Origin: an uncultured Bacilli bacterium
GTDB lineage: Bacteria; Bacillota_I; Bacilli_A; RF39; UBA660
NCBI GenBank assembly: GCA_910583745.1
Contig: CAJTZC010000001.1
Span: 34,746 to 98,745 of the forward strand
Length of the DNA stretch: 64,000 nt
Reading direction: 5' to 3'
Part shown: positions 678-22,362 of the stretch, in pieces
How positions within the stretch are numbered: the stretch's first letter is position 1
Layout: the number at the start of each line of letters is the position of its first letter
The notes under the pieces: generated by a model
The model's input: only the letters and a program-made list of their open reading frames with translations
The model's database searches: none
Told to the model about the DNA's origin: nothing
Translations under genes and position numbers: made by a program

Positions 678-789
678 AACTATGACCCTTCCTATTTTAT
701 ATCATATATGTATAGTATTTCATTTTTAAGCAATAAAGTCAATAAATTTGAATAAAGTTTACGAAAGTTAATGACTATTTTGCTAATTT

Positions 790-1983: not shown

Positions 1984-2177
1984 AAAATATCACTTCTTTA
2001 CTATAAAGAATTGTACCATATTTTATTTCGTTTTAATATGTTATTTTAAAAAGTTTACTCTGTTTTTTGCAATCAGAAACCTAAATCTTTTTTCAGAAGT
2101 TTAGATTCATTGGAACTTAAGCTATGATTAAAATCATATAGTTTTTTAATTCTCGATCACTTAACAGTTTGGTCTCT

Positions 2178-2358
2178 CCTACTATTATTATTCCGGAAAA
2201 AATTTTTTTCTCATTATTTCTTCCACTTTTTTTCGAAGACGTGAACGCATGTTTTGTTTTCGGCCATTTTTCGACAGAGAGAGAAAAATGTCATTTTTAG
2301 AACATGCAAAAAGAGAAAATGCTTTGTTGTACATTCTCTCTCGTTTTTGCCAAAAAAT
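2178..2358. repeat. Intergenic repeat element, copy A (~180 bp). Partner copy at 31991-32176 is in the same orientation and ~88% identical. Contains internal inverted repeats.
   Basis: Direct comparison of the two regions: ctactattattattccg(g)aaaaaa...ctcattatttctt.cactttttttcga...ttttgtttt.ggcc.tttttcgaca...agaaaaatg.catttttа.aacatgcaaaaagagaaaatg.tttgttgtacatt.ctct...gc.aaaaaatga. Internal palindromes aaaaatg/cattttt and agagaaaatg/cattttctct. Confidence 0.7.
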
Positions 2359-2693
2359 GATTTTCTGTTTTTCTCTTAAAAGACTTTTCTCATCACAGGT
2401 GTATGAATTGATTTAAGTAGCTGTTTCTCCAATCTGCTATTAAGGGGGGTCAACTCTGTATTTATTATTATTCAGATGGGAGGTGTCTATTCAGTTAAAA
2501 TAGACTTAGGGGGCTTACTTCAAGTGCTTATTGTACTTGCCACTATCATTGCTTCTCTAAATAATAAAGAGAAAACGACTCATCGGTTGGAGAAACGCGA
2601 CTCGAGCAACTTGTGTTACTCTCGATTATGATTATAGGGTATGCTTTTCTTTTTTTCAAATCTTATTTTCAAAAATTATAAACCATTGTAAAT

Positions 2694-3506
2694 TTAATTC
2701 ATCGAACCATAATGATGGAAAGAAATCATTAAATTTCCACTTGGATTTTCTTCTAGCAAGTTAGCAAAGTCTTTGAGAATGTCTTCCTTAGAAGCAAAGT
2801 AACCCTCTTTTCCATATTCGACTTCATAAATAGAATCAATCTTTTTATCGTATTTATTCGCAAGTTCAACTTCTCTTTTGATTTTAGAAGCTGTTTTAGA
2901 TATCTTATAGTTCATGACTGAGATACCATCCGAATTTTTAATCACTCTTTTTAGCAAGTCGTCGTCGATGGAGTCGAACCAATATGGGATAGCTAACAAC
3001 AATTCTAAATCATGTCTTTTGCAATAATCATAACTCTTTTCGATTTGTTCGACATATACTTCAAAGTCTTCGACCAAAAATTCTTCACTTTTTTCACTCA
3101 CATAGGGTTCAATATCCAAGATAATTCCTCGAATAGGCATCTCGACCTTTTCATTGAAAGCTAAAACTTTTTTAACCTCTCTCTTTATTTTTTCGTAGCC
3201 TTCCTTGCGTCCCCATGAAGGATCACCTGCGAGGTGGTAGACCGCGATTTCTCGGTCGTCCATCTCTTTTAAAAACGAGTCGTCGCCTTTTTCTAGAAAC
3301 TCACTCGAGAAGTCTTGGTATAGAACTTTTACATTGTATTCTTTTAATACCTTATAAAATTTCATTGGATCTTCTAAAATTTCATCTAATTTCCAAGAGT
3401 AGAGGCTCGATTCATAGATTACTGTCTTCGCTTTAAATATCGATATGAATAAAACGAGCAAAAGAAAAGAAAGCAGAATTGCTAAAAATGTTGTTTTTTT
3501 GTTCAT
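2694..3506 (-). CDS. Signal-anchored extracytoplasmic protein of the EPS operon; possible polysaccharide hydrolase-like (TIM-barrel) protein
   Basis: 270 aa with an N-terminal TM anchor. Stop overlaps the upstream GT2 gene start (3503-3506). Acidic motif ILDIEPY suggests a glycoside-hydrolase-like barrel. No CE4 deacetylase motifs were seen. Confidence 0.35.
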   Translation of the reverse strand: MNKKTTFLAILLSFLLLVLFISIFKAKTVIYESSLYSWKLDEILEDPMKFYKVLKEYNVKVLYQDFSSEFLEKGDDSFLKEMDDREIAVYHLAGDPSWGRKEGYEKIKREVKKVLAFNEKVEMPIRGIILDIEPYVSEKSEEFLVEDFEVYVEQIEKSYDYCKRHDLELLLAIPYWFDSIDDDLLKRVIKNSDGISVMNYKISKTASKIKREVELANKYDKKIDSIYEVEYGKEGYFASKEDILKDFANLLEENPSGNLMISFHHYGSMN

Positions 3507-4906
3507 ACTTTCAATTCCGTTCTATCTAATTTATCCCACTTCATGCGTTTTTTCTTGTATCCTATGAACGATGTCAACCTTGCGACCATGAGAATAAATC
3601 GCAAGAACGCAATCTCAAATATGCAGAGATATACCGCGCGACAAATGTCTTTAAATGACAATTTGTTGTTTGCAAGATAGATTCTCGCGAAGAACGTCGT
3701 CAAAGTCATGACACAGCCAAAGAGTGTGTATAAAATATAAAATATAATCATGAATGGTACATTTAGAAGACCAAAACATAGGGCGACAATCGTCGCGATG
3801 TTTCCGATGACCTCTATAAAAGGTGATAATAACTCGAAAAACAGGTAGTAAAAATAAGAGATAAAGCTCAAGAAACCGTAATGATAATTGCAGAACAGTT
3901 CTCTGTATTTTGTCATACATTGGACGAGGCCTATATACCATCTCTTTCTCTGTTTTATTAAATCTTTTAATTTTTCAGGAGCTTGTGTCCAACAAATAGC
4001 TTCGGGTATGTATCTGATGTTGTAATCAATCGAATTTTTTTGACAAAAAACGTGCATCTTCGAGACGAGCTCAAAGTCTTCTCCTACTGTGTTTTGATCA
4101 TATCCATTGCATGCGAGGACGATTTCTTTTTGAAAGAGTCCGAAGGCTCCAGATATAATCAAGTTTCCATTGTAGTAATCCAACATAATTCTAGAGGCTA
4201 AGAAAGACCTGTCGTACTCTAAAACTTGCATGCTTGCCAGAATATTTTTTGGAAGTTCGTATTTTTGTACTACACCATCACGAAGTTCTACCGCATTGCT
4301 AAGACGAATGAACCCTCCACAGGCGATGACTGTCTCGTCTTCGAGAATTGGACGTACGAGTAACTCCAAAGAATCTTTTTGTAAGGCAGAATCGGCGTCC
4401 ATGGCGAGGAAGTATGGAAATTTGGAGATGTTTATTCCCGCATTCAAAGAATCAGATTTTCCGCCGTTTTCTTTATCGATTACAGTTATCTTTACTCCCT
4501 TGTGCGTACCTTCGTAGATGCCTCTTATCTTTTTTGTCTTCAACTGTCTATTGTACGGTTTGTCAACCTTCGTCAGTGCGTATTCTTCTAAAAGACATTG
4601 TAAGGTCTTATCTGTCGAACCGTCGTTGATGACGATGATTTCATAGAGCTTATAGTCTAATGCTAAAAGAGATTTGACACTCGAACGAATGACTTTCTCT
4701 TCGTTATAAGCTGGAACCAAAATAGAAACGGGAACATAGTAGTCGTGTTCGATGTTGTTATGCATGACCTCTTTATAGCGATTTTTAAACAATGTAATCG
4801 ATCCGATAATCGACGAAATAAATAAAAACGTCGAATAAAATAGCATGTACAATATGAAGAAATAGCTCACGTATTTGAGACATATTTTTACGATTTCTAA
4901 AGCCAT
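3503..4906 (-). CDS. Processive family-2 glycosyltransferase (PgaC/IcaA/BcsA-like exopolysaccharide synthase)
   Basis: 467 aa. N-terminal 2 TM, then a GT-A domain with DGSTD, the DAD-type motif (LAMDADSAL) and the processive-synthase signature QRKRW (QxxRW), followed by C-terminal TM helices. Confidence 0.75.
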   Translation of the reverse strand: MALEIVKICLKYVSYFFILYMLFYSTFLFISSIIGSITLFKNRYKEVMHNNIEHDYYVPVSILVPAYNEEKVIRSSVKSLLALDYKLYEIIVINDGSTDKTLQCLLEEYALTKVDKPYNRQLKTKKIRGIYEGTHKGVKITVIDKENGGKSDSLNAGINISKFPYFLAMDADSALQKDSLELLVRPILEDETVIACGGFIRLSNAVELRDGVVQKYELPKNILASMQVLEYDRSFLASRIMLDYYNGNLIISGAFGLFQKEIVLACNGYDQNTVGEDFELVSKMHVFCQKNSIDYNIRYIPEAICWTQAPEKLKDLIKQRKRWYIGLVQCMTKYRELFCNYHYGFLSFISYFYYLFFELLSPFIEVIGNIATIVALCFGLLNVPFMIIFYILYTLFGCVMTLTTFFARIYLANNKLSFKDICRAVYLCIFEIAFLRFILMVARLTSFIGYKKKRMKWDKLDRTELKV

Positions 4907-5991
4907 TATACATCGCCTCCTAAAAGGTGTGATTGGTAAGAAAGTGCTTCTTTTGCATATAAATCATCGATGGATTGAATTAAGTCTTTTCGTTTTTCCT
5001 CTTTCGTCAGTTCGATGAGACTTGCAGCCGCATTGGCTCTTACATACCAATTGTGACTTCTCACTGCCCTCTTTAATACTTCTAAAGTCTTTTTTTCTGG
5101 ATATTTTTTTAGAGTCATCGCTGCGATGGCTGAATATTCCCAGTTGTTTTTGTCGTCACTCAAGAGTTCGTAGAGAGTCTCTATCACTGGCTCGTAGTGG
5201 ACATTGGAAAAATATCTTATACAAGCTATCTTTACTTCTTTGTGCTCGATTGGTGAAGTAAGGATTTTGTAAATGAATTCCTTGCAATCGATTTTTTTAT
5301 AGCCAAAAAAGTTGATACAGGCGACTTTGTAATCTTCGTCATAGTTTTTTAGTTCTTCGATGAGCATATTTGCGAGTTCTTTTGTGTCGCCCCGATATTT
5401 CATCAAACCATCGGTTATCAATTTGTGATGATGTTTGATGTTCAGATAGTTCATCTGAAAGAAAGCTTCTTTTATATACGAAGTTTTTCCTATCGAATAC
5501 AACGTGTTTAAAGCGTTCTCTCTCAAATAGACAGAATCTTTCGTCGTACATTGTATGATGTAGGAAAGGACGTGATCCATGTTCTCTTCGTATAAATAAG
5601 GATACTGTGCTAAGAAGTGGATAAAATAGGTCTGTCTGATGATTTCTTCTTTTTGGTAATGTGGTAAAATCTCTCGGAATACGGACTTTATCTTTGTGAG
5701 ATATTTTTTCCGTCTATCTTCAGGCATATTGTCGATGGCACTCGTAAAAGCGATGAAATAGCCTATCTTCTTGAGATTTTTGGCGAGTCTTTTGATGTCG
5801 TCGGAAGAGATATCTTCCGGCTTTTTGTTCGCGATTTGTTCTTCGATTTTTTTCGTGAGCAATTCGGTGTTTTTGTCTGTGACTTTTCTATATAATATAG
5901 ATACCACATCGAAAACGAGCATCGAAAGAAATACAATCAGATATATGTATAAAGTGTTCTCTGCAATCGAATTCATAATCAGACTCTCCAA
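4906..5991 (-). CDS. Membrane-anchored HEAT/PBS-lyase-like repeat protein
   Basis: 361 aa. N-terminal TM, then helical repeats (e.g. SHNWYVRANAAASLIEL) typical of HEAT/PBS-lyase repeats. Overlaps neighbouring genes at both ends (operon). Confidence 0.45.
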   Translation of the reverse strand: MESLIMNSIAENTLYIYLIVFLSMLVFDVVSILYRKVTDKNTELLTKKIEEQIANKKPEDISSDDIKRLAKNLKKIGYFIAFTSAIDNMPEDRRKKYLTKIKSVFREILPHYQKEEIIRQTYFIHFLAQYPYLYEENMDHVLSYIIQCTTKDSVYLRENALNTLYSIGKTSYIKEAFFQMNYLNIKHHHKLITDGLMKYRGDTKELANMLIEELKNYDEDYKVACINFFGYKKIDCKEFIYKILTSPIEHKEVKIACIRYFSNVHYEPVIETLYELLSDDKNNWEYSAIAAMTLKKYPEKKTLEVLKRAVRSHNWYVRANAAASLIELTKEEKRKDLIQSIDDLYAKEALSYQSHLLGGDV

Positions 5992-8105
5992 TCTTTTTTG
6001 ACAATTTCGTACGATTTTTTTAGTCTCTCATGGTATGTAATCTTTTCTCCCCAAGGTTTCAATTTATAAGAATTTAAAGTTATATTTGAGGAGAACGATG
6101 CACCGATAAACAATTCATCAATTTTGTAACTGTCGACCCCATATTGTTCGTAATAGTCGTCGTGTATCATCATAGACGATGGATCGGAGAAATTTAAAAT
6201 TTGCCATGGGATTCGTATCTCCACCTTGCCGTCCTTTTCGTAAAAGTCGGCTTGTGAATTATAATCCGAAGCATTCGGATTTCCATTTCCAAACGTGAGA
6301 CGACCCGTATTGACTAGGGTGGCTTGTTTGTAGTTACGACTATATCTGTTCGTGCTGTAAGGCTCGATTAAGAGGTTTATGTCGGTGAAGGTGCTCGAAT
6401 CCTTAGCGGGCTTGTCTATATAAGAATTTTTGCCGAGAAGTTCGTATCCATCGACTGCTTTTAATACATCGTAATACTCTTGAACGAGGATTTTTCCTTC
6501 TTTTCCATCTAGAACGATTAAGAAATCGACGTCTCTATCGAAATTTAGGTTGTAATGGTTCGCGAATTTGGTTCCACTTTTCTCTGTGACATCCAATGGG
6601 ATATACAGAGGAGCTTGCTGTTTTTTCTTTTTGTCGACATACAAATAGAGATATCTTTCGTCCTGTTTCATACTCAAAGAAAGGTTTTCCGTATCGACAA
6701 TTTTATCCTTGTCGCTCCATTCTTTGATATCTCCATCGATATAACAGACACTTTCCTCTTCTCCGGGGTCAAATGTCAAAAGACCTAGACCTTGGTTTGT
6801 CGTCTGTACATCGTTCCAGTTCATCGTCTCCGGGATATCTATCTTTTCAATTGTATTCCAAGAGCGCTTATCCCATTCGTCTTGCCATGTGGCAATTAAG
6901 CCTCCGGCCGAACCGGTTTCGATGATGGTGTGGTATGCATTCACGAGGGCCTTTCCCTGTTCTTCTTCGGTCATACCACCGAAATTTCCGTACCTATCGT
7001 CCGCGAGAGAGGAAATTCCACGAGAAGTCGAATAAGCGAATTCTGTCACGAGAACAGGCATGTCGTGGTGGTTGTTGAGTTTCAAAAGGTATGAGAAGTA
7101 TGTGTCTTGGTATTCCTCTTTCTCATAACTCAAGTAGTTAGGATAATAAGAAGAAATGTTGTATGCTGCGAATAGACCTTTGTAATCGTTTACTGGTTTT
7201 AAGTGTTCTGCGTCGAGACGTACTAGTTTATGGTAAAAGAACTTCAAATTCTCAGGAGTCAAATATGGAACTTCGTTTTCATCTTCTTTGACAATCGGTA
7301 TATCTCCGACGGGATCAGTCGTAGGGGAATTGATGAACGATATACTGTGTTGTTCGTTGTATTTTTTTGTCTCATACGTGACGAGATGGTCGAGAACTTT
7401 GGCAAGCATCGTCTCAAATGGTGTCGCGTCGGCTTCTGTAGATATGTAGTTGCCAGAAAAACCTTTTCTATCCTGGTATTTGTTGTCGGTGTAGATGATG
7501 GTGTAATCTATCCATTCGCTTCCGACGACATACGCTAAGACGTATTTGGATATGTTTTTTTTGTACTGTCCTTTTCCGGCGTTATTTAAGGCTAATTTTT
7601 TCCTTCCGTGTATGACATCTACTGCGTTTTCTGCTCTCGTAATCAGTTCACCATAGTAAGCACGCGAGAACCCATCGTGATGGGAATTCAGAGTGTATGA
7701 ATCTAAGTTTATTCCCTGTATCAGATATAATTTCTCCTCGTGTGCTTCGTTGTAATCGTAGAAAGCATCGTAAAAATCGTCATTGAATATCGCATTCAAG
7801 CGCACAGTGTTGCTGCCGAGCTCGTGGATGGATTCGAGCCATGCATAATACGTGTCATACGGTATCGCGTAATCTGTGACATAGTGACCCGGTATCGAAG
7901 CTCCTATGTTTACTCCTTTTACGGTGATTTGTTCGTACGCATCGCCTTTGGCCATCATCAACTTTTTTCCGTCTGCAAAACTTATCACTTCGATTTCTCC
8001 GCTTTTAGGGACAAAGAAACTCCATCGATAGTATGCAAAATCGAATAAGAAATAGATTCCTATCAGTGTAAAAATTAAGATTATAAATTTTTTCATCTTG
8101 TCCAC
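5979..8105 (-). CDS. Membrane-anchored 708-aa extracytoplasmic protein, putative glycoside-hydrolase-like TIM-barrel plus beta-sandwich C-terminal region
   Basis: N-terminal TM anchor. Region with VLVTEFAYSTSRG, resembling a GH nucleophile motif. Large Tyr/Asn-rich C-terminal part. Function inferred weakly. Confidence 0.4.
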   Translation of the reverse strand: MDKMKKFIILIFTLIGIYFLFDFAYYRWSFFVPKSGEIEVISFADGKKLMMAKGDAYEQITVKGVNIGASIPGHYVTDYAIPYDTYYAWLESIHELGSNTVRLNAIFNDDFYDAFYDYNEAHEEKLYLIQGINLDSYTLNSHHDGFSRAYYGELITRAENAVDVIHGRKKLALNNAGKGQYKKNISKYVLAYVVGSEWIDYTIIYTDNKYQDRKGFSGNYISTEADATPFETMLAKVLDHLVTYETKKYNEQHSISFINSPTTDPVGDIPIVKEDENEVPYLTPENLKFFYHKLVRLDAEHLKPVNDYKGLFAAYNISSYYPNYLSYEKEEYQDTYFSYLLKLNNHHDMPVLVTEFAYSTSRGISSLADDRYGNFGGMTEEEQGKALVNAYHTIIETGSAGGLIATWQDEWDKRSWNTIEKIDIPETMNWNDVQTTNQGLGLLTFDPGEEESVCYIDGDIKEWSDKDKIVDTENLSLSMKQDERYLYLYVDKKKKQQAPLYIPLDVTEKSGTKFANHYNLNFDRDVDFLIVLDGKEGKILVQEYYDVLKAVDGYELLGKNSYIDKPAKDSSTFTDINLLIEPYSTNRYSRNYKQATLVNTGRLTFGNGNPNASDYNSQADFYEKDGKVEIRIPWQILNFSDPSSMMIHDDYYEQYGVDSYKIDELFIGASFSSNITLNSYKLKPWGEKITYHERLKKSYEIVKKDWRV

Positions 8106-8112
8106 TCCATTC

Positions 8113-9588
8113 TTATGGATTGTAGTCTTTTACTTTTGAGGCATGGCTGAACTGTCTCAAGGATTCGATATTTTCGTCTAACCATTTTCCTCTTTCTCGT
8201 ATAGCCGTTTTCATGTCGTCGATAGCCTCTTTATAGGAATGGGCATTGTCTTCGACATTTACATAGCGGTTCTTTTCGTCACTGAACGAATCTCCGTATT
8301 TGACGAAGTTTCTCTCAATGGCAGGGCCTAAATAATCGACAACTTCATCGATGTATTCGTAAAGATAATCGTCACTCAAAACGTTCTTGCGCATCTCTCT
8401 ATATCGTGCAATGACTCTTTCAGTAAAATATTCATCTTTTAAAAGCATTTGAAACCAGTTTTTGTCTTTCATCAAAAACTCTTGGTTGTCGAGCATGTCT
8501 ACAAAGTAATTGTCGAATATGTTGTTCATATCCCAGAAAGCCAATTTCATTTTTCCGGTCTTATCTTTGTATATATAAGTCGAGTTATTCCCCGCATCGA
8601 AGTTCAAGAAAAATTCGTTGAATACGACATAGTTTACGAATGAATCGATGTCGATGTGGTTGGCATAGCCGAAGTTTTCGTCATCGTAGTCGAACGAGTA
8701 CAGAATTCGTTCGAAATAACTCAAGTCATCGTTTATATATTTGTTCAATTTAGTGGTCATTTTTGTCTTGCTCGGATATACGATGTTGTACTCGGAGAAC
8801 GGTACAATTCGGTTCGTATAGCGAGAGAAGTTGTCTAAATAGAATAGGTCGTCGTCTTCGACGTATCTCTTCGTGATGACGAGTAAGTAGCTCGTTATAT
8901 CCGCATTTTTGTTAAGTTTTGAGATATCAATTTTATTTTTGTCTACCTTTATCTTTTCGACTAGGAGGTAAACGCCTTGGTATTCTTTGTTTACAAATAC
9001 TTCGCAGAATCGGACATTTGGCGAGTATTCCATGAATTCACCTGTTAAATTGTATCCGATGTAGTTGCGCATGAGTGTCTTGTCTAACCAAGGTCCATGT
9101 AAAATGAAATCAGAATCTTCGGAGAGTCCTAAAAGAGGGTATTCTCTATCTTCACCCTTTTTGTTGATGAGTTTTACACGGAGTCCTTTTTTATCGAAAG
9201 ACCGAGAGGAATTACCACGATATCTTATGAGCGTCTCCGTCTTGAACGTCTCTTTGCTGTTTAACGCATTGTCTCCAGAGTTGTCGTAGACTTTCATCGT
9301 CGATTGGATGTACTCGTCTACACTCTTGTCGTCTCCGCCTAGAATCTCTTTTCCTTCCGTATCGAACGAAATGATAGGAAGATGTGACGAAAAGGACGAA
9401 GGGTCTATCGTCCTACTTTGAAATGTGGTTTCATCTATCTTGCTGTAATCGTAGTTTGGATATTTTGTCTCTTTTACTAAGTGTTCGTGGTATCGATTGT
9501 TTTCCAAACCCTCTTCGACTGTACTTGCCCAAAAAGAGAGCCCTAGCACTCCTATACAAGCACACAATACTATGACTTTATTTTTCAT
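8113..9588 (-). CDS. CotH-family atypical protein kinase with signal peptide
   Basis: 491 aa with an N-terminal signal peptide (MKNKVIVLCACIGVLGLSFWAS). Core matches the CotH family: NVRFCEVFVNKEYQGVYLLVEKIK. 8-bp gap to the downstream gene. Confidence 0.65.
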   Translation of the reverse strand: MKNKVIVLCACIGVLGLSFWASTVEEGLENNRYHEHLVKETKYPNYDYSKIDETTFQSRTIDPSSFSSHLPIISFDTEGKEILGGDDKSVDEYIQSTMKVYDNSGDNALNSKETFKTETLIRYRGNSSRSFDKKGLRVKLINKKGEDREYPLLGLSEDSDFILHGPWLDKTLMRNYIGYNLTGEFMEYSPNVRFCEVFVNKEYQGVYLLVEKIKVDKNKIDISKLNKNADITSYLLVITKRYVEDDDLFYLDNFSRYTNRIVPFSEYNIVYPSKTKMTTKLNKYINDDLSYFERILYSFDYDDENFGYANHIDIDSFVNYVVFNEFFLNFDAGNNSTYIYKDKTGKMKLAFWDMNNIFDNYFVDMLDNQEFLMKDKNWFQMLLKDEYFTERVIARYREMRKNVLSDDYLYEYIDEVVDYLGPAIERNFVKYGDSFSDEKNRYVNVEDNAHSYKEAIDDMKTAIRERGKWLDENIESLRQFSHASKVKDYNP

Positions 9589-9590
9589 AA

Positions 9591-10271
9591 TTATCCACTG
9601 ATTTCGTCGTTTTGAGATACGATGTTCACGTATTCGACATTTTTAAGTTCGTAGATGGTCTCTGTGATGCTCTTTTCTCTGTCGAAGGATTTCGTATAGT
9701 ATTTTTTAGGAAGCTCGTATATCAATTCGAGAGTTTTGTCGGTCGTATTTTTGACGCGAAGGTTGGCTTTTTGTTCGAAATAGTCGAATACGATTCCTTC
9801 TATTTTTCTTTCATTGCTCAAACTCGTCTTGATGACTAAAAGTATTCTGTTGTCGTTTTTAATGCGACCCATGAGTAACATGACTAGGAAAACGATGGCC
9901 GTTCCTATTCCAGCGACGACATAGTCTCCTACTCCACAGCAGATACCTACTATGATGGTCCAAAAGATGTACGCTGTATCTCTGGAATCTTTGATTGCTG
10001 TACGAAAACGGACGATAGACAATGCACCGACCATACCTAGAGACAGTGCAATGTTGTTACCTATTACGGTCATGACCATGGTCGTCAAAATGGTCAACAT
10101 GATGAGGGATACATTGAACTTTTTGCTGTATATTGTACCTTCGTGTGAAAAGTAGTAGGAAAGGAAAATGACCAATCCCAGGACGACTGCGATGATTAAG
10201 TGCATCGCAATCTGTTCAAGTGTCAAGGAACTTGACGAAATTTCTAATAAATCTATTAACTTATCTTTCAT
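9591..10271 (-). CDS. DUF4956-family membrane protein
   Basis: 226 aa, 3-4 TM. Segment LSLGMVGALSIVRFRTAIKDSRD is characteristic of DUF4956. Stop lies 3 nt before the CotH start. Confidence 0.6.
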   Translation of the reverse strand: MKDKLIDLLEISSSSLTLEQIAMHLIIAVVLGLVIFLSYYFSHEGTIYSKKFNVSLIMLTILTTMVMTVIGNNIALSLGMVGALSIVRFRTAIKDSRDTAYIFWTIIVGICCGVGDYVVAGIGTAIVFLVMLLMGRIKNDNRILLVIKTSLSNERKIEGIVFDYFEQKANLRVKNTTDKTLELIYELPKKYYTKSFDREKSITETIYELKNVEYVNIVSQNDEISG

Positions 10272-10293
10272 AATTAAATCTCTTCTTTCTTTT

Positions 10294-10989
10294 TTATAGT
10301 ATTATTTTGTGTGTCACATTTCGCGACATATAATATTTACTTACCGAAGTATTGATACACGAGACGCTTTCGATGAGGTCTTTCACGTAGCTCAGTAAGA
10401 AACCGTTGTATTTGACTTCTAAAACGTAGTTGTTTTTATCCATAATCGGATTCATCTGTAAATTGGGGTCAAAGATGTCCATCGAAGCTTCGGTTGCCAC
10501 GATGTCGTGATCAAAAGTCAATCGGATGCTGTTCTCTTTCACGACGAATGCGTCTCTTCTATATTCGATGATCACTTTCGGTCTATATAGATTCATCGTC
10601 ATGAACAGGTACATTTCCATCGCGAATGGGTCTTCGTAGTTTAGTAAGCATGCGTAATTCCCTTTGGACAACTCGATGGCATCTTCTCTCGATACGAGTA
10701 GGGACCTCTTCAATTGGTAGTCGCCTTCTTTTTGTTTCATCTCTAACATCGCGAAGGAAGCTTCTGGGTCGTATACGCGGAGTCGGACTTTTCGTCTTAT
10801 CTCTACTCCGGCTTCTTTTTCTTGAAAATCTCTATCGTCTAGAGTGTCAAAGTACAGTGAGCGTATGGTGTATCCATTGTCTTTATTGTGGCTGTCACCT
10901 ATAAGAACTTTGCTTATGTGGTTTTTGGCTTTTTTGTATTCCTCTGTATTCAGAAGATATTTGATTTCTCGTCGCCTTACGATATTCAA
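10294..10989 (-). CDS. VTC-domain (polyphosphate polymerase-like, CYTH-like) protein
   Basis: 231 aa. N-terminal REIKYLL, YTIRSLYFDT and charged tunnel residues typical of bacterial VTC-domain proteins. First gene of the operon that continues to 2694. Confidence 0.65.
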   Translation of the reverse strand: MNIVRRREIKYLLNTEEYKKAKNHISKVLIGDSHNKDNGYTIRSLYFDTLDDRDFQEKEAGVEIRRKVRLRVYDPEASFAMLEMKQKEGDYQLKRSLLVSREDAIELSKGNYACLLNYEDPFAMEMYLFMTMNLYRPKVIIEYRRDAFVVKENSIRLTFDHDIVATEASMDIFDPNLQMNPIMDKNNYVLEVKYNGFLLSYVKDLIESVSCINTSVSKYYMSRNVTHKIIL

Positions 10990-11240
10990 AAAATTACACC
11001 TCCCTATACAATCAAGGTTTAAGTATAATTAAAAAGCTCAGATATTTATCGATCCAGAGTCTATTATCCGGATTTTTTTATTGTAAAATAATGCCTGAAC
11101 AACGCGGTTTTTGTCAAGTGTTTCTGGACACTTTGATAAAATTTCCCCTTATTTTTCGCCTTGATTCGTTAAAATCGAGTATATTATAAAACAAATTCTT
11201 TCGATAGTCCACCTTTTTTTGCTTAATTATTTATATCTAA

Positions 11241-11268
11241 AAATCCAAAATAGTTAAATTTTGGATTT
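11241..11268 (-). terminator. Weak AT-rich hairpin 17 nt downstream of the lipoprotein gene stop
   Basis: Perfect 11-bp inverted repeat aaatccaaaat/attttggattt with a 6-nt loop. No clean U-tract, so the assignment is tentative. Confidence 0.25.
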
Positions 11269-11284
11269 AGTAAGTATTTAATCT

Positions 11285-12037
11285 TTATTTAGTTTTTTGA
11301 TTGTCGTCTAAATTTTTAGACGATTGCATTGTCAATTCATCTAATCTCTCTTGCAAAAAGTCTAATTGTGTTTGAGAATATGTTTTATCACTACTCAAAG
11401 AAATATAACTTCCGGTGCTTTCTGGAAATTGATAGTTACAAGCAAAATTATCGTCAAAAAATTCACCGTTTTTTATAACTAAGTTTTCATTTTTATCACA
11501 TATAACTTCACCATCTTTTTGGATTGTTGTATTTTTAGTTTGTGATACATAATCTTCAGAATCTGATTTGCTAGTAACCTCTATTATCTCACTATATCCA
11601 ACATATCCTTCACTATTTAAAGAAACAGTAGTAACACTTGCAGAAGCAGAATTATCAGAAACGTCTTCATAACTTGTAGTTTCAAATGTGCAGTCTGTAT
11701 ACATCGTAGATAAAGTTTCATAAGGAATATCATGACCAAATGACATATCAATTATATCACGAATAGGTTGTTCTTCCTCCTCTTTATCGGACTTTTCTAG
11801 AACATTATAACGGTATGTTTCTAACGTTGGATCAAAAGATGCAAATATTTTTATATCCTCACCATTATAAATTTTATCACCATCAATAGGTTTTACGTCA
11901 TCTAATAGAGCATTGATTGCATCTATACTACTAAGTTCTACCTCTTCACTTGTTTTTCCTTTAAGCGAGCAGCCAGTTAACAAAAATATTGCTGCACCAA
12001 ATAGAGCCGCTGTTCTTCTTTTTAAATCATTTTTCAT
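11285..12037 (-). CDS. Acidic lipoprotein (lipobox LTGC)
   Basis: Real start MKNDLKRRTAALFGAAIFLLTGCSLKG at 12037 with GGAGG RBS (12043-12047 rc). The longer listed ORF 11285-12274 is a read-through into the duplicated tasA-like fragment. Mature protein is D/E/S/T-rich. Confidence 0.55.
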   Translation of the reverse strand: MKNDLKRRTAALFGAAIFLLTGCSLKGKTSEEVELSSIDAINALLDDVKPIDGDKIYNGEDIKIFASFDPTLETYRYNVLEKSDKEEEEQPIRDIIDMSFGHDIPYETLSTMYTDCTFETTSYEDVSDNSASASVTTVSLNSEGYVGYSEIIEVTSKSDSEDYVSQTKNTTIQKDGEVICDKNENLVIKNGEFFDDNFACNYQFPESTGSYISLSSDKTYSQTQLDFLQERLDELTMQSSKNLDDNQKTK

Positions 12038-12104
12038 AAAATTTACCTCCCTTTCGTGGCATATAATATCACTAATTTTGATAAATTGCAACCTTAAGTA
12101 ACAT

Positions 12105-12430
12105 TTATCTGCCAAGTATGTATTTATTGTATTTATCAAGTTGTCCCAACTTATCTTTGCAAAAGCATCTCTCGTACCTGTATTTTCGATGACTAACTCT
12201 TTCTCGATTGTATCTCCAAAGTTCCATGTGCCTTCTGTATTTTCTACCATTTCATCATTATCTCGAAATGTCAAAGCTAAATCGCCACTTTTTATTGTAA
12301 TTTTTTCTTGTTCATTTGTTCCTACTTAGGATATGAAGTAAGCATACGTCAAAGAAGTCGTCAAAGCGACTATTGATACACAGAGGACAATCAACGAAAC
12401 TACGTTTTTCTTATTATCTTTTTTTGTCAT
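12105..12430 (-). pseudogene. Tandem duplicate of the 5' ~320 bp of the tasA-like gene (signal peptide plus first ~100 aa), interrupted by an in-frame TAA
   Basis: 12105-12430 aligns base-for-base (~88%) with 13710-14024. Copy reads MTKKDNKK...SLTYAYFIS*VGTNEQEK... . TAA arises at cctacttagg versus cctacttggg in the intact gene. Copy starts 17 nt after the stop of the intact gene. Confidence 0.6.
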
Positions 12431-12446
12431 GTTCTTTCACATTCCT

Positions 12447-14024
12447 TTAGTTTATTTCCAAATAATATGGATTGTCGATGGTGCCATTTCCTTGGAGTTT
12501 ATCGAGGTATTCAGACTTGAGGTTGATGACTGGAATAAACTCAACGTTACTAATTACTTCTGTTTCTTTCAGGCTTCCTTCATTACTGACACCGAAGACA
12601 TGAGCATAATTAGCCCATATTCTGTATGGAGAAAATGACCCGTACCAACTTTCTTTGTAGAGATAATAATTTTGGTTTTTTGTCCCATACTTCCCACTTC
12701 CGGCTGCAACGATTTCATCTGCTGTGATTAACCCTACTGGATACGTCAAATTCCCGTTTCCTCCGCTTGTTTCTTTTACTGTGAATTTATCATTTTCTTG
12801 TGAACATGTGAATTGTGGTTGCACTTTATCAAAGTTTGCTTTTTCCACTCCACTTCTTGCATAGGCACCATATGCTGTATAGTTATTTCCATATCCTAAT
12901 CCTGTATCATTAATCCATCCTGTTACACTACTTCCTGGTGTGCTCCTGTCGTTACAGAAGATACTGTCTGCTATATAGTTTGCATATCCTGTATTTACTA
13001 TGTTTGTTTTGTACCATTCATCTACTTGTGTCTTTATCAAAGAATCTGTTTCATTTCTTTGGGCTTGTTCTTTACTCGTACTTGCACTTCCGTTTGTTCC
13101 TCCAAACATCCATCCTACATATTTTGTATCGTTGTATGTTCCATTCCACATTTGACTCGTCAGAGCAAAACCTCTCGTGTAGCTGTTCGTTTCGGGTGTA
13201 CCTGCACCATCATATTGTATTCTTACTGTTCCATCACCATTGATTCTGATAATTCTCCACCACATATCTTGTCCACTTGCGTCTCGTCCAAATTTTATAT
13301 AATTATTAGGAGCTGTTCCTCTAAAATAATAGCTTATTCCATAGTCATCTGACATGCTATATAAACCATCACCTGTTTCGTCGGTCATTGCAGGATTTGT
13401 AAAGTTAGGCACTTCTGATTTTGCATTTTTAATCAATTTTATTAGAGGAATATCAGGTTTTCCTTGTTCCAAAGTAAATTTTGTTATAAATTTAGCATTT
13501 AAGTCTGCGGTTTGGTCTATATCTGGTAAATTTTCGAATGTGATTTTTACTCTATAGGTATAGGTATGTCCTGCTGGAACAAGTAAGTGGTCTGCCAAAA
13601 GTTGAGTCAACGCTGTCTCACTTCTCGGTACATTTGCACTCACGGTTTCTACTTGTTTCCATACTGCGTTTGTCTCATCACTTTTCTCTTCCAAAGTATA
13701 GGTTAAAGATTCTGCCAAGTATGTATTTATCAAATTGTCCCAACTTATTTTTGCATAAGCATCTCTTGTCCCTGTATTCTCGATGACTAATTCTTTCTCG
13801 ATTGTGTCTCCGAAGTTCCAAGTGCCTTCTGTATTCTCTACCGTTTCATTATTATCTCTAAACGACAAAGCTAAATCTCCACTTTTAATTGTAATTTTCT
13901 CTTGCTCGTTCGTTCCTACTTGGGATACGAAGTAAGCATACGTCAAAGAAGTCGTCAAAGCGACTATCGATACACATAACACAACCAGTGAGATTATTCT
14001 TTTCTTATTGTCTTTTTCAGTCAT
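12447..14024 (-). CDS. SipW-cognate secreted protein: TasA/camelysin-like N-terminal domain plus ~350-aa Gly/Asn/Tyr/Trp-rich C-terminal extension
   Basis: 525 aa. Signal peptide ending in the SipW-cognate motif (SLTYAYFVSQ, cf. TYAAF(S/N)D of TasA). N-domain parallels TasA (ITIKSGDLALSF, WNFGDTIEKELVIENTG). A SipW-type peptidase is encoded at 26063-27151 on the same strand. Confidence 0.7.
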   Translation of the reverse strand: MTEKDNKKRIISLVVLCVSIVALTTSLTYAYFVSQVGTNEQEKITIKSGDLALSFRDNNETVENTEGTWNFGDTIEKELVIENTGTRDAYAKISWDNLINTYLAESLTYTLEEKSDETNAVWKQVETVSANVPRSETALTQLLADHLLVPAGHTYTYRVKITFENLPDIDQTADLNAKFITKFTLEQGKPDIPLIKLIKNAKSEVPNFTNPAMTDETGDGLYSMSDDYGISYYFRGTAPNNYIKFGRDASGQDMWWRIIRINGDGTVRIQYDGAGTPETNSYTRGFALTSQMWNGTYNDTKYVGWMFGGTNGSASTSKEQAQRNETDSLIKTQVDEWYKTNIVNTGYANYIADSIFCNDRSTPGSSVTGWINDTGLGYGNNYTAYGAYARSGVEKANFDKVQPQFTCSQENDKFTVKETSGGNGNLTYPVGLITADEIVAAGSGKYGTKNQNYYLYKESWYGSFSPYRIWANYAHVFGVSNEGSLKETEVISNVEFIPVINLKSEYLDKLQGNGTIDNPYYLEIN

Positions 14025-14184
14025 TATTTCTACCTTCCTTTTTAAACCCAGTCTACCATAAGTGTTTTGAAAATCGTGTCGATTTTTATTTATGCAATTT
14101 TTTTTGATACTTATTTTGTGAGTATTATCTATGATATAAGTATATAATCAAATGGTTATAAAAGCAACAAAATGAGAAAATAAA

Positions 14185-14212
14185 GCGAAAAAAAGATACT
14201 TTTTACAGTATC
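14185..14212 (-). terminator. Putative intrinsic terminator between the coupling-protein gene and the tasA-like gene
   Basis: Minus-strand hairpin GATACT-gtaaaa-AGTATC followed by UUUUUUU (plus-strand aaaaaaa at 14188-14194), 6 nt after the stop of 14218-16467. Short stem, so modest confidence. Confidence 0.35.
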
Positions 14213-14217
14213 AATAA

Positions 14218-16467
14218 TTATTCATCGTCTCCAAAGAAATCGTCGAAGAATTGGTCGTCTGTGACGAGACCGTTGCTTAAGACGACACTCGAGTTGTCTA
14301 TGTTTGTCTTCGTAGGTGGCTCTGGCTTTACTTCTTCTTTTGGGATAACTTTTGGTGCGATTGGAGTCGCTATTTCTCGGTCTAAATCTTTTAGCATCGC
14401 TTCAATATCGGCGTTTTTCGCTGTTTTCGGCTCTATCGCATTAGTTGGAGGCATAATATTTGAGATGTCCTTCTTCATTGCGGCATTGACTTCTTTTCTC
14501 TTCCTTTCCTCTTCCGCTTGTTCTTTCTCTAATTCTGCAATTTGTTTGTCTATATTTTTTACGAGTTCATCGATGTCGACCGGTTTATCTAAGTTGAATG
14601 GGTCGTTTGAGTTTTTAAACAAATCGTTCGGTGGAGAAGACGGTAGAGATGGGCTATTTAACATATCCATCGAATTTGCCGTAGGGTTAGGTATATTTGG
14701 CAACGGATTTCCTCCTGTCGCTTCTTGGGCCTTGCTTATCGCTTCCATCGTCTTCTTGTGTTTCTCTTCCTTGACGAATTGCTTCATATCGAATGCCTTT
14801 ACTGGATAAATTTCTCTCTCTTGCAAAGTTGCATCGTCGTAAGAATCTCCCCAGTCGATATCATAAGAACCCTTGAGTACCGTTCTGAAAGGTCTCATAC
14901 GCATTCGGATGACGATGATTTCATTTCTCTTCATCTTCTGTAAATCTGTTACCGTTACGAGAGGTGTAGAGACTGTCTTGTCGTCTTTTTTCGATTTCAC
15001 TTCTCCGCATAACTTACTAATTTCTTCGAGCGCGGATAGCTCATTCGTAAGCAGGTAGATGGTATTACCACAGTTACTTCGGATGGTTTCTGCGTTTTTA
15101 TCTCCGTATACTTCATCCAATTGGGCGAAGTTCTGTATGATGAATGTGAAACGTATCTTACGAGAACGAGCAGCCGTGACCATCGAAGTGACGTCTCGAA
15201 GCTGAGGCATGTTCGCGAACTCATCGAGAATGAAGTTCGTTCTATATTTCAGTTCTCCGTTTGGACTCTTGTGTGCGACATCGATGAGGACCTCGTACAA
15301 CTGTTTAATGAAGATGGTCGCGAGAGAATGGTAAGTCGTCTTCTCATCGTGGACGATTAGGAAAACGGCTGTCTTCTCTTTACCGATGTCTTCCATGTTA
15401 AAGTCACTGTAAGAAAGCATTTCGGATAGCTCTTCACGAGTACTGAATGTCCTTATCTTACTTTGGAATACTGATAAGATACTCGATTTTGTATCATTCG
15501 GTGCGGCGATGGTCGCCTTCGCATATCCATACGCCGTAGAAGTTTCACTTTTTAATGTGAAGTAATCCTTGGCAAACGTGTTGAGACCGTTCTTCTCTTC
15601 ACCAACTGTCGCCATGTGACTGATGGAGGTGATGTTTACTTCGTTCTCTTTCGCGTCTTCGAATAGTCCTAAAGCCAAACCAGAGAAGTAGTCTGCGGCA
15701 CTTCTCTCCCAGAATGGGTCGTTCGTGTTTTTAGGGTCGATGAGAATGTTCTGGCTTATGTCCTCGAGCAACTCTTTGGCCTTGTCGGATTTTCCCTGTT
15801 TGTACATTCTATACGGAATGGTAAGGGGGTTCCACGCATTTCCTTCGCGAGGGTCTCGGAAGTTAATGACGACGATTTTGTAACCTTTATCTCTCAATCT
15901 GTTCGCATGGTGTTTGTAAATCTCACCTTTCGGGTCTGTGATGACCATGGATTCGCCGTGTTTGCATAGACTGTATACTTGGGGATCGACAAGAGCCGTA
16001 GTTTTACCTGAACCGGATTGTCCAATGATGAGGGAATGATATTCTCCATCGTCTACCCACATATTTTTACCGTCGTTAATCATGGCAATTCCTCCGGCCT
16101 CTGCGGTCGGGACGTTGACGGGAACCTTCTCGATTTTGAAGGCTGCTTTCATCTCTTTTTCGGTCGTCCAACGGTTGTAACCTTTCTCTTCTTTTTCTCC
16201 AAAGACTAAGCCTATTCCACCTTTTTCAAAGTTGAATATGGTAGAAGATACACTCATAAAGATGACAACTAGGGATGCGATAAATAGGAAAAGTGTGAGG
16301 TAGAATGTCTGCATGCTCCACGCCGAAAAATCGAGCCAAGCTAGACCTTGGTCCGAACTGAACGATAAGAAATTCAACGCTATGACGGCGCATCCAAAGA
16401 ATAGTGCAACACATATAGCTATAAACATGATAAAGTCTTTTTGTTTCACTCTGACTTTCAATTTCAT
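14218..16467 (-). CDS. Type IV coupling protein (VirD4/TraG/TcpA-family ATPase) with long acidic/Pro-rich C-terminal tail
   Basis: 749 aa. Two N-terminal TM helices. Walker A IIGQSGSGKTT. Family signature VITDPKGEIYKHHANRLRDKGYKIVVINFRDP...NPL. C-terminal 200 aa low complexity ending FFDDFFGDDE. Confidence 0.8.
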   Translation of the reverse strand: MKLKVRVKQKDFIMFIAICVALFFGCAVIALNFLSFSSDQGLAWLDFSAWSMQTFYLTLFLFIASLVVIFMSVSSTIFNFEKGGIGLVFGEKEEKGYNRWTTEKEMKAAFKIEKVPVNVPTAEAGGIAMINDGKNMWVDDGEYHSLIIGQSGSGKTTALVDPQVYSLCKHGESMVITDPKGEIYKHHANRLRDKGYKIVVINFRDPREGNAWNPLTIPYRMYKQGKSDKAKELLEDISQNILIDPKNTNDPFWERSAADYFSGLALGLFEDAKENEVNITSISHMATVGEEKNGLNTFAKDYFTLKSETSTAYGYAKATIAAPNDTKSSILSVFQSKIRTFSTREELSEMLSYSDFNMEDIGKEKTAVFLIVHDEKTTYHSLATIFIKQLYEVLIDVAHKSPNGELKYRTNFILDEFANMPQLRDVTSMVTAARSRKIRFTFIIQNFAQLDEVYGDKNAETIRSNCGNTIYLLTNELSALEEISKLCGEVKSKKDDKTVSTPLVTVTDLQKMKRNEIIVIRMRMRPFRTVLKGSYDIDWGDSYDDATLQEREIYPVKAFDMKQFVKEEKHKKTMEAISKAQEATGGNPLPNIPNPTANSMDMLNSPSLPSSPPNDLFKNSNDPFNLDKPVDIDELVKNIDKQIAELEKEQAEEERKRKEVNAAMKKDISNIMPPTNAIEPKTAKNADIEAMLKDLDREIATPIAPKVIPKEEVKPEPPTKTNIDNSSVVLSNGLVTDDQFFDDFFGDDE

Positions 16468-16523
16468 TAAATCACGCCCTTTTTCCTCACATATTATATA
16501 CTATTTTTTTAAAAATTACTACG

Positions 16524-17006
16524 TTATTCGAAATCAACTGTATATTTCATCACAGCTTCCACCGTAAAGACGTAGATATGCCCTTTTGTATCGCTGACTT
16601 TAATCGTCTGAGTCTCAGTATTTTTCTCTTTCGAAATCTCGTATCTGTCGATTTGGGGAAGCTCCGTAAAGTTAGAAGTCAGGTTTGCTGCTAGAACTCT
16701 AAAGGCTACAGAATTGGGATAAAAACCTCTCGACTTTTCGCTTAGATGCGCATAGGCTCTCGGCAAATCTTCGACGAGAAGTAACACGTAGCTATTAAAG
16801 TAAGTTCTTACCATATCTTCTTCAGTTACCGACGCGGGCTTGTACTCATTCACGCCGGTTTTTCGATTGGGTATCGCATAGTAGTCTTCGACGTCGTTGT
16901 TCGGTGCATATTCGACATCGATGCGAGAACTGACGACAAAGTATATTCCTATTGCGGCAAAAATCAGGATAATGACAAAAGTGACGACTCTATTGTTTTT
17001 GTTCAT
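16524..17006 (-). CDS. Membrane-anchored hypothetical protein (T4SS-associated by context)
   Basis: 160 aa with a single N-terminal TM. Overlaps the upstream gene stop (16990-17006). Confidence 0.35.
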   Translation of the reverse strand: MNKNNRVVTFVIILIFAAIGIYFVVSSRIDVEYAPNNDVEDYYAIPNRKTGVNEYKPASVTEEDMVRTYFNSYVLLLVEDLPRAYAHLSEKSRGFYPNSVAFRVLAANLTSNFTELPQIDRYEISKEKNTETQTIKVSDTKGHIYVFTVEAVMKYTVDFE

Positions 17007-17541
17007 CGTACAATCCTCCTATTCCCGGTTTTATCGAATATAACAATTTGTCTTCGTAGAGGACGACTGTCACATCGTAATCTGAATAGGTCGAATCTTC
17101 GTCCATCTGGGATTTCTTTATTCTTCCTTTGACGTAGTACTCGACCACATTTTTGGAAATTCTGTGTTGGTACATCTCCTCGCCCACGTAGTCGTACATG
17201 TAATTATACTCTAATTTTGGAATGTGATTTCTCACTGTCGACGCGGTAATTCTGTTCGCTTCTTTGTATTCTTCGTTTAAAAGTAGAAGCATGTCGTCTG
17301 TGTTGCCTCTTTGCATATAGTTTAGGTAACTCTTGACACAGTTTACTGCCGTGAAGTACCTCCCGGCATCTGTCACTAAGACTGTCTTTTGGCTCTCTTC
17401 TTGCTCTTTTTTGGCGTCGATTAACTTTGATACGCCGAGATAGATGAGGAAAGAGATGAAAATTAAGACAAAAACTATCGATGTCAAAACGTTCTTTTCA
17501 TTTTCATTTAAGTCTTTTAATTTCTTGGTATTTTTGTTCAT
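16990..17541 (-). CDS. Membrane-anchored hypothetical protein (T4SS-associated by context)
   Basis: 183 aa with N-terminal TM. Start overlaps the stop of the hydrolase gene (17538-17541). Confidence 0.35.
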   Translation of the reverse strand: MNKNTKKLKDLNENEKNVLTSIVFVLIFISFLIYLGVSKLIDAKKEQEESQKTVLVTDAGRYFTAVNCVKSYLNYMQRGNTDDMLLLLNEEYKEANRITASTVRNHIPKLEYNYMYDYVGEEMYQHRISKNVVEYYVKGRIKKSQMDEDSTYSDYDVTVVLYEDKLLYSIKPGIGGLYDEQKQ

Positions 17542-19685: not shown

Positions 19686-19708
19686 AATGTCAAATCACCT
19701 CTCGTCTA

Positions 19709-22041: not shown

Positions 22042-22342
22042 TTTTATAGCACCATCCTCTCCATTTGTACGTCCTCTGTCTTACGAAGTAAAACGTGTAT
22101 ATGTTTGTAATCAGTTGTAATACGTTGTGATAATGTGGCACGGGGAAAACTAGAAACGCTGCGACCATGGCTGGCAACAGTATGAGTAGCATTCCCACGA
22201 TTGAGTCTGTATGTATTGCAAACATCATGATGAGTGTAAGTCCTACTCCCGAACTGAATAAAATTAAATCCAATGGAGTGAACAATCCTAGTATCATTTC
22301 CGACTTTTTTGAGTTGGCCGGAATTAAGTATCTGCCATTCAT
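22025..22342 (-). CDS. Small two-TM protein, VirB3/PrgI-like
   Basis: 105 aa with a hydrophobic helical hairpin. Positioned immediately upstream of VirB4 as in Gram-positive T4SS loci. Confidence 0.45.
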   Translation of the reverse strand: MNGRYLIPANSKKSEMILGLFTPLDLILFSSGVGLTLIMMFAIHTDSIVGMLLILLPAMVAAFLVFPVPHYHNVLQLITNIYTFYFVRQRTYKWRGWCYKNGNNK

Positions 22343-22362
22343 CTTTTATTCCTCTTTTCTTC

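Follow-up and report, generated by a model that had tools for sequence, protein, structure and literature searches.

The window analysed here is a 64,000-nucleotide (nt) stretch of contig CAJTZC010000001.1 (GenBank assembly GCA_910583745.1, positions 34,746 to 98,745 of the forward strand) from an uncultured Bacilli bacterium, and the subject is a trio of adjoining genes at window positions 8113-10989, which encode a VTC-domain protein, a DUF4956 membrane protein and a CotH-family kinase-like protein. An earlier note on this DNA had placed the trio at these positions and named the three families, and both statements hold: the three open reading frames (ORFs) lie at exactly these coordinates, all on the minus strand, and each has its Pfam match. 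The VTC-domain protein (10989-10294; 231 amino acids (aa), TTG start) matches PF09359 (E=5.5e-42), the DUF4956 protein (10271-9591; 226 aa) matches PF16316 (E=3.7e-15) and the CotH-family protein (9588-8113; 491 aa) matches PF08757 (E=1.4e-56). The trio is very probably one functional cassette attached to an exopolysaccharide (EPS) operon.

The trio and the operon that it heads

The three genes are cistrons 1-3 of a seven-gene operon that extends on the minus strand from 10989 to 2694. The proposal that they head an exopolysaccharide synthase operon is borne out by the four further cistrons, which are joined by 2-nt gaps or 1-4-nt overlaps down to position 2694 and include a family-2 glycosyltransferase (GT2) synthase. 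Spacing as tight as this argues for co-transcription of the trio with the EPS synthase. The spacings of 3 and 8 nt given in the earlier note fit the second and third junctions, each being off by one, but not the first: as read in the sequence, the spacer is 2 nt between the DUF4956 and CotH genes and 22 nt between the VTC and DUF4956 genes. The gene that follows CotH begins 7 nt away if the GTG at 8105 is used, or 16 nt away at the ATG at 8096, which has the better ribosome-binding site.

This fourth cistron (8096-5979; 705 aa) encodes an exported or anchored protein without a Pfam family, for which a clan GH-A-like TIM-barrel glycosidase-like domain and additional C-terminal domains are predicted. 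It is followed by the genes for a HEAT-repeat membrane protein (5976-4906; 356 aa; PF13646, E=3.5e-12), for the processive GT2 synthase (4906-3503; 467 aa; PF00535, PF13641 and PF13632) and for a second protein that is exported or anchored and may be a small glycosidase-like TIM barrel (3506-2694; 270 aa), all on the minus strand.

A spacer of 295 nt with promoter-like sites lies 5' of the operon. On the minus strand it comprises a promoter-bearing leader (10990..11239) with two putative sigma-70-like consensus matches, TGGACT-17-TATAAT (11211-11183) and TTGACA-18-CATTAT (11117-11088), and a GGGAGG Shine-Dalgarno sequence 9 nt before the TTG start of the VTC gene. Beyond the leader, a terminator-like hairpin on the same strand (AAATCCAAAAT...ATTTTGGATTTTT, 11240..11270) was read directly in the sequence, having been missed by a scan for G+C-rich terminators. 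This hairpin appears to terminate an upstream gene of 329 aa, and the operon would therefore be insulated. The terminator scan found no same-strand terminator-like site inside the operon, and an Rfam scan of window positions 1-14500 (E<=1) found no riboswitch or leader RNA.

Conservation and portability of the trio

A scan of one genome per species yielded at least 567 genomes with a relative of the VTC protein, and the ORFs of the best 80 loci were searched with the window proteins. The order VTC-DUF4956-CotH was present in 69 of the 70 of these loci with enough flanking sequence, each from a different species; the arrangement is thus far from chance, and a chance gene cluster was rejected on this ground. 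A six-gene block, in which the trio is followed by the genes for the protein of about 700 aa, the HEAT protein and the GT2 synthase, was retained at 60 of the 61 loci that could be tested for it, all of different species. The median gaps along the block are 18, 18, 15, 1 and -4 nt, and among the hosts are Oscillospiraceae, Lachnospiraceae, Blautia, Roseburia, Hungatella and Bacilli. Conserved co-occurrence of the three families, which the earlier note had proposed to check, is strong across Bacillota and beyond.

Plasmids extend this range. A megablast search of plasmids with the operon gave no match, but when the plasmid collection was searched at the protein level with CotH, three matches were obtained, all of which carry the trio and each of which places it in a different context. 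On a Planococcus maritimus plasmid the module is the same as in the window, including a homologue of the 270-aa protein, which is encoded upstream of VTC (E=4.6e-24). On a Deinococcus taeanensis plasmid (L086:7905-10715) the order is CotH-VTC-DUF4956 and no polysaccharide genes adjoin, so that the cassette can exist alone. The same order is found on Pseudobutyrivibrio xylanivorans pNP95, within a Wzy-type locus of GT2, GT4 and GT61 glycosyltransferases with acyl- and pyruvyl-transferases. When metagenomes were scanned with the VTC protein of Pseudobutyrivibrio as seed, 52 loci were obtained, and with a CotH model built from divergent members CotH-VTC-DUF4956 was recognised in nearly all of those with enough upstream sequence. 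Two examples among the metagenome loci are Pel-type: in these, PelF-PelG-CotH-VTC-DUF4956 precedes the gene for either a DUF4832 protein or a sensor kinase. The constant feature of these arrangements is a DUF4956 gene directly 3' of VTC, the stop codon of the one frequently overlapping the start of the other (by 1-19 nt in L112, L094, L095 and L086), and CotH adjoins the pair in nearly every locus. It is firmly supported that the trio is not tied to one type of operon and is accessory to several unrelated polysaccharide secretion systems. No fusion of DUF4956 with VTC or with CotH was present among the best 120 and 150 matches, and the idea of a VTC-DUF4956 fusion was rejected.

Related gene groups have been reported at pel loci. 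Whitfield (2020) described an accessory gene group at Gram-positive pel operons that comprises cotH, DUF4956, DUF4832 and a 'polyphosphate polymerase' (PMC7112168), and the Streptococcus intermedius genes SIR_1591-1594 are trio-type accessory genes at pel (mBio 2025, PMC12345266). In the latter organism deletion of the DUF4956 gene raises Pel, deletion of the CotH gene lowers it, and each of the two deletions halves aggregation in artificial sputum medium (PMC12345266). Pel loci and the window have in common the contiguity of the three families with an EPS operon and a membrane-anchored glycoside hydrolase. They differ in gene order (CotH-VTC-DUF4956 in Pel loci, VTC-DUF4956-CotH in the window) and in polymer machinery, which is PelF/PelG in the former and a single GT2 synthase with a HEAT protein in the latter, and the trio proteins are about 16-30% identical. 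Pfam scans found no pel genes (PelF, PelG, PelD/E, PelA) among the operon products or their window neighbours, and the operon was rejected as a Pel operon because these genes are absent. The authors of the mBio study state that synteny of the trio does not occur outside Pel loci (PMC12345266), a view which is contradicted by the GT2-type, plasmid, Wzy-type, Deinococcus and NELoc-2 loci.

NELoc-2 is the necrotic enteritis locus of Clostridium perfringens described by Lepp et al. (2010), in which CP4_0463-CP4_0468 show the gene order of the window and products of near-identical size, the likeness being one of order and sizes (PMC2879425, Table 4). The sizes in NELoc-2 and in the window, respectively, are 230 and 231 aa for VTC, 222 and 226 aa for the membrane protein, 497 and 491 aa for CotH, 685 and 705 aa for the hypothetical protein, 377 and 356 aa for the HEAT protein, and 466 and 467 aa for the glycosyltransferase, which is named 'chitin synthase' in NELoc-2. 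The DUF4956 genes of that locus were misnamed tubulin/FtsZ (GTPases), and the locus includes a deacetylase (PMC2879425). Both gene sets lie in horizontally acquired DNA, NELoc-2 in a chromosomal island and the window copy beside conjugation genes; an additional VTC-DUF4956 pair, a resolvase and a sigma factor are found in NELoc-2 only. Co-occurrence of the trio was therefore known already (PMC2879425, PMC7112168, PMC12345266), but it is broader than the published view of it as Pel-specific. The statement in the earlier note that a pathway of this kind is not experimentally described stands in so far as no biochemical work on a bacterial VTC/DUF4956/CotH system came up in a literature search; it does not stand for the trio itself, which has been described at pel and published in NELoc-2, with deletions made in S. 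intermedius.

The surroundings of the operon may be those of a mobile region. Conjugation-type genes lie directly upstream (14218-27151), for a coupling protein, a VirB4-like ATPase and an M23 peptidase, with a 1528-aa FtsK/SpoIIIE protein further on (47123-51709), and a conjugative element may carry the operon as cargo. Other species do not share the neighbouring conjugation genes, and the idea of a cargo specific to this element was rejected for that reason. Between the operon and these genes there is a direct repeat of 300 nt with 87% identity (12128-12427 and 13722-14021), by which the 5' end of a 525-aa gene is duplicated before the 329-aa gene and gives the ORF of the latter a spurious N-terminal extension. 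Just downstream of the operon and a major facilitator superfamily transporter gene is the start of a 922-aa membrane-anchored protein (1-~690, minus strand; L001:19595-20681), which has Asp-rich D-x-D-G-D-G-K-P-D repeats of the calcium-binding type. Elsewhere, an ORF of 2918 aa (36002-44758, minus strand) has no Pfam match at E<=1e-4, and G+C content drops from about 40% to 24-30% at 60001-64000, which may mark the boundary of the mobile region.

Predicted properties of the operon products

Alignments and a structural model provide good support for the VTC protein as a soluble cytoplasmic triphosphate-tunnel enzyme of the Vtc4, or polyphosphate (polyP) polymerase, subfamily. It aligns with positions 2-233 of the 235 in the PF09359 profile (144.4 bits; cut-off 23), and hydropathy analysis gave no hydrophobic segment. 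An AlphaFold model made with 14 homologues (predicted local distance difference test (pLDDT) 87.8) predicts a closed beta-barrel tunnel fold, for which the top Foldseek match is the polyP polymerase domain of yeast Vtc4 (3g3q; E=9e-14, template modelling (TM) score 0.72); the YgiF/CYTH tunnel enzymes rank below it (1e-8). A single-sequence phmmer search of the PDB gave no match, a profile being needed. In the profile-to-sequence alignment, K10, R69, R71, K85, Y143 and R145 correspond to Vtc4 K200, R264, R266, K281, Y359 and R361. Eight triphosphate-coordinating residues of Vtc4 are listed in a preprint on the cryo-electron microscopy structure of VTC (bioRxiv 10.1101/2023.01.27.525886); six of them map onto the window protein, all six being invariant in the family alignment, and most tunnel residues are still invariant when Deinococcus and Pseudobutyrivibrio homologues of 24-30% identity are added. 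The alignment ends at residue 165, and the metal-binding E426 of Vtc4, as well as S457 and K458, lie beyond it. The motifs LEVKYN (E191) and SVSKY (S217, K218) are invariant among VTC homologues, and from their positions E191, S217 and K218 are the likely equivalents of these three. In the yeast proteins, K458 distinguishes active Vtc4 from inactive Vtc2/3 (bioRxiv 10.1101/2023.01.27.525886).

With the eukaryotic VTC complex (Vtc4/Vtc3/Vtc1) the window protein shares the fold of the tunnel domain, the six aligned triphosphate-binding residues and the common idea of coupling cytosolic synthesis to membrane passage. It differs in being a single domain, with no SPX domain, no fused three-helix membrane domain and a Glu (E8) for Thr198, and its membrane partner is the MgtC-like DUF4956 protein instead of the three-helix domain.

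The DUF4956 protein is well supported as a polytopic, MgtC-like membrane protein from its sequence and model. It scores 56.5 bits against PF16316 (cut-off 30.6) and 25.6 bits against the MgtC/SapB family PF02308, which is below the cut-off of 31.4; some close homologues carry a precomputed PF02308 label. In the model, five predicted membrane helices (18-134) are followed by a putative ACT-like alpha/beta C-terminal domain (142-220) of beta-alpha-beta-beta-alpha-beta topology. The best fold matches of this domain are the C-terminal domains of MgtC proteins (7qa5 and 2lqj), which are weak (E about 3e-3, model pLDDT 70.6). A near-invariant core of about 50 residues, GNNIALSLGMVGALSIVRFRTAIKDSRDTxYIFWxIIVGICCGVG, was found in an alignment that ranges from Clostridia to Planococcus, and there are invariant basic loops at K50/K51 and at R88, R90, K94 and R97. 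By the positive-inside rule, the basic loops and the ACT-like domain are predicted to face the cytoplasm. The family is large, with 6203 clusters at 50% identity (E<=1e-3).

The CotH protein spans the whole of PF08757 (positions 1-322 of 322; 192.8 bits) and, by alignment, is well supported as an exported kinase-fold enzyme in which both catalytic aspartates are kept. Hydropathy places a hydrophobic segment at residues 5-23, a signal or membrane anchor, and the catalytic domain would thus lie outside the cytoplasm. A profile of 17 homologues (16-61% identity) from VTC/DUF4956-linked loci aligns with the whole kinase domain of Bacillus cereus CotH (5jd9; E=6e-28, chain residues 29-358); single-sequence phmmer against the PDB gave no match, profiles again being needed, and a sub-profile of the C-lobe gave noise only. 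Four residues are fully invariant in the 17 homologues, G125, G205, D331 and D353, of which D331 falls opposite the Asp of the NFDG motif of B. cereus CotH, and D353 opposite the first Asp of its PWDYD motif. These two probably correspond to D228 and D251 of Bacillus subtilis CotH, judging from the 23-residue spacing and the B. subtilis sequence. Mutation of D228, which is catalytic, or of D251, which binds metal, inactivates the B. subtilis kinase (PMC7821199). Retention of active-site residues had been proposed as a check on both enzymes, and it was found in CotH (D331 and D353) as in VTC, where six Vtc4 triphosphate-binding residues are kept by alignment and the remaining equivalents are assigned by motif position.

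The earlier description of CotH as a secreted kinase suits the protein encoded here, which has an export signal, but not the family as such, since CotH is not inherently secreted and is a spore-coat kinase in Bacillus. In Bacillus its substrates are CotB and CotG, and the mother cell is its site of action. The Bacillus and window proteins are homologous over the full kinase domain and have both catalytic aspartates in common; the window protein differs by its export signal and by about 110 additional N-terminal residues, and it has no CotB or CotG neighbours. Unlike the spore-coat protein, CotH of the trio also occurs in non-sporulating lineages, for example Deinococcus and streptococcal-type Pel loci.

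Among the remaining operon products, the GT2 synthase has the motifs NDGSTD, DAD, GEDFE and QRKRW (D, DxD, ED and QxxRW, as read in the translation) and transmembrane (TM) segments at both ends (16-34, 373-391 and 424-442). Its best NCBIfam match is PgaC_IcaA (TIGR03937; E=3.5e-40), at 138.2 bits against an equivalog cut-off of 422.3, and it also matches Chitin_synth_2 (E=5e-11), both matches lying far under equivalog thresholds. By these scores it is related to the poly-N-acetylglucosamine synthase PgaC/IcaA but is not an equivalog; NCBIfam holds no model for any member of the trio. The HEAT protein, with a single N-terminal TM segment (9-27) and C-terminal HEAT repeats, is presumed to be a partner of the synthase, and its gene is always directly upstream of that for GT2 (median overlap 4 nt).

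The 705-aa and 270-aa proteins have no Pfam match, and N-terminal TM segments (4-22 and 6-24, respectively, by hydropathy) place the bulk of each outside the cytoplasm. A profile of the former weakly matches 9fz9, a 'GH2 catalytic domain' protein (E=1.3e-3), with an SEFG motif opposite TEFG of 9fz9; a second deposited sequence, 9g4n, has TAFG there. A profile of the latter weakly matches a 'putative GH97' (10yv; E=0.007), with a common D-x-E-P-[YW] motif. The 705-aa gene keeps its position in 60 of 61 loci, and the 270-aa gene stands after GT2 or before VTC according to species. PgaC/IcaA and chitin-synthase-type systems share with the operon the GT2 motifs, the flanking TM helices and an extracytoplasmic glycosidase-like protein; the operon lacks PgaB/IcaB, PgaD/IcaD and PilZ partners and has instead the HEAT membrane protein and the two proteins without a Pfam family.

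In eight loci (L017, L028, L039, L051, L065, L081, L082 and L084) two of the trio genes lie apart, with about 1.5-1.8 kb between them. In both of the loci checked (L084:10702-12450 and L051:11389-12996) the gap is filled by a gene for a carbohydrate esterase family 4 (CE4) polysaccharide deacetylase with SLH or FN3 domains, which is inserted on either the VTC side or the CotH side of DUF4956. Because CE4 genes occur inside the trio in some species and the synthase resembles PgaC and chitin synthase, the nascent polymer of the window operon is probably N-acetyl-hexosamine-based.

Possible functions of the cassette

The topology of the trio, with a soluble VTC protein, a polytopic DUF4956 protein and an exported CotH, fits a pathway that runs from the inside to the outside of the cell. 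As the best overall explanation, held tentatively, the trio is a portable membrane-spanning accessory cassette of secreted-polysaccharide systems with a polyP-type mechanism. From cytoplasmic ATP, the VTC protein would synthesise polyP of short chain length, or a different phosphoanhydride product, at the membrane, and DUF4956 would dock VTC and move the product across. CotH, outside the cell where ATP is scarce, would then phosphorylate the nascent polysaccharide or matrix proteins with this supply, or alternatively might work alongside an exported polyanion, and the modification would tune the charge, cohesion and amount of the matrix. That polyP is made, exported and then used by CotH in just this order is possible but doubtful. 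The cassette could be the first prokaryotic VTC-type polyP synthase-exporter, composed of a soluble Vtc4-like enzyme and an MgtC-like membrane protein unrelated to it; it would power an exported CotH kinase, which could then phosphorylate a secreted polysaccharide or the matrix where ATP is lacking outside the cell. This is considered somewhat unlikely.

Several observations weigh against this polyP-type mechanism. The literature search found no paper showing polyP synthesis by a bacterial VTC-domain protein, and we know of no kinase of the CotH fold that uses polyP. The equivalents of Vtc4 E426, S457 and K458 are assigned by motif position in a region that the alignment does not cover, and the mapping goes no further because a sub-profile of the VTC C-terminus, made to seek them, gave noise only. 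At the position of Vtc4 Thr198 the window protein has the invariant Glu E8. ExExK is the motif of the hydrolytic tunnel enzymes (CYTH/TTM family), and as E8 restores half of it, the VTC protein could be a triphosphatase. The transmembrane role that the earlier note had suggested for DUF4956 agrees with a protein that is polytopic by hydropathy, but DUF4956 is MgtC-like and unrelated to the membrane (channel) domain of eukaryotic VTC, and a channel role is therefore argued by analogy only. MgtC proteins are, to our knowledge, not known as transporters. VTC-DUF4956 pairs also occur without CotH (L095:5965-11167, L096 and L097:3647-9154), where they come after a response regulator and a histidine kinase and before a secreted protein with a Cthe_2159 domain (PF14262); in a further locus (L094), both CotH and a Cthe_2159 protein precede VTC. 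Finally, no phenotype was reported for deletion of the VTC gene in S. intermedius (PMC12345266), and together with the opposite shifts in Pel after the other two deletions, this agrees with regulation no less than with a linear supply chain.

The opposite S. intermedius phenotypes, the extra tunnel Glu and the MgtC-like nature of DUF4956 keep both regulatory and hydrolase roles alive. As a regulatory module, the trio would set the amount of polymer without modifying it: CotH would phosphorylate extracytoplasmic parts or partners of the synthase, DUF4956 and the tunnel enzyme would couple output to phosphate or energy status, and the whole would replace control by cyclic di-GMP (c-di-GMP) in organisms that lack it. 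The authors who described the trio at pel propose regulation (PMC12345266, PMC7112168), and the deletion phenotypes agree with this. The ACT-like C-terminal domain of DUF4956 resembles regulatory MgtC and ACT domains, neither PilZ nor GGDEF domains turned up in a Pfam scan of the operon products, and two-component systems adjoin the VTC-DUF4956 pairs in L095-L097 and L112. However, the model leaves an extracellular kinase without the phosphoryl donor that it would still need, and the strictly conserved Vtc4-like triphosphate-binding set argues for catalysis over sensing. It is also hard to square a specific protein target in each system with machineries as unrelated as GT2, Pel and Wzy-type, and with the absence of any in Deinococcus. 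On the whole, a purely regulatory role is considered somewhat unlikely. A hydrolytic or otherwise non-polymerising VTC enzyme (a tripolyphosphatase, NTPase or cyclase-like protein), tethered by DUF4956 and, for example, energising or gating it, is quite unlikely. CotH would in that case be independent, using traces of extracellular ATP, and the trio would be linked by co-regulation only. Among the bacterial tunnel enzymes characterised so far, hydrolases and cyclases form the majority (YgiF and CYTH proteins were among the fold matches), and E8 restores part of the ExExK metal site that is missing in Vtc4; the pairs without CotH, and the additional pair in NELoc-2, are consistent with such a role. 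Nevertheless, sequence and fold are clearly nearest to Vtc4 (PF09359 E=5.5e-42; Foldseek 9e-14 as against 1e-8 for YgiF/CYTH), the SVSKY lysine, which is the likely counterpart of Vtc4 K458, is invariant, and CotH adjoins in nearly every locus, in very distant lineages and in three gene orders.

In a further alternative, polyP would be the end product of the cassette. Once exported, this polyanion would cross-link a hexosamine polymer made cationic by partial loss of its N-acetyl groups, or would act as its counter-ion, in the way that chitosan is gelled by tripolyphosphate, and CotH would have a separate protein-kinase role. The two polymer systems to which the trio is linked are both of hexosamine type, as Pel is rich in GalNAc and deacetylated (PMC12345266) and the window synthase resembles PgaC and chitin synthase. 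In addition, deacetylase genes occur within the trio (CE4) and in NELoc-2, and an Asp-rich calcium-binding repeat protein is encoded just downstream of the operon. This reading is considered very unlikely. Pfam scans recognised no deacetylase in the window operon, the near-constant presence of CotH would be unexplained, the trio is also found in a Wzy-type locus and alone, and extracellular polyP is without evidence.

The cassette is carried by abundant gut Clostridia (Blautia, Roseburia, Hungatella and Oscillospiraceae), by streptococcal and bifidobacterial-type Pel loci and by a necrotic enteritis locus. As a practical result, it is not Pel-specific, and tractable hosts are offered by the C. 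perfringens island and the Planococcus plasmid. If polyP export, or the feeding of an extracellular kinase, were true, it would explain bacterial phosphoryl-transfer chemistry outside the membrane and represent a new way to power chemistry beyond it. The cassette would then be a new determinant of the properties of the biofilm matrix, and the outcome would be a new class of phosphorylated biofilm matrix.

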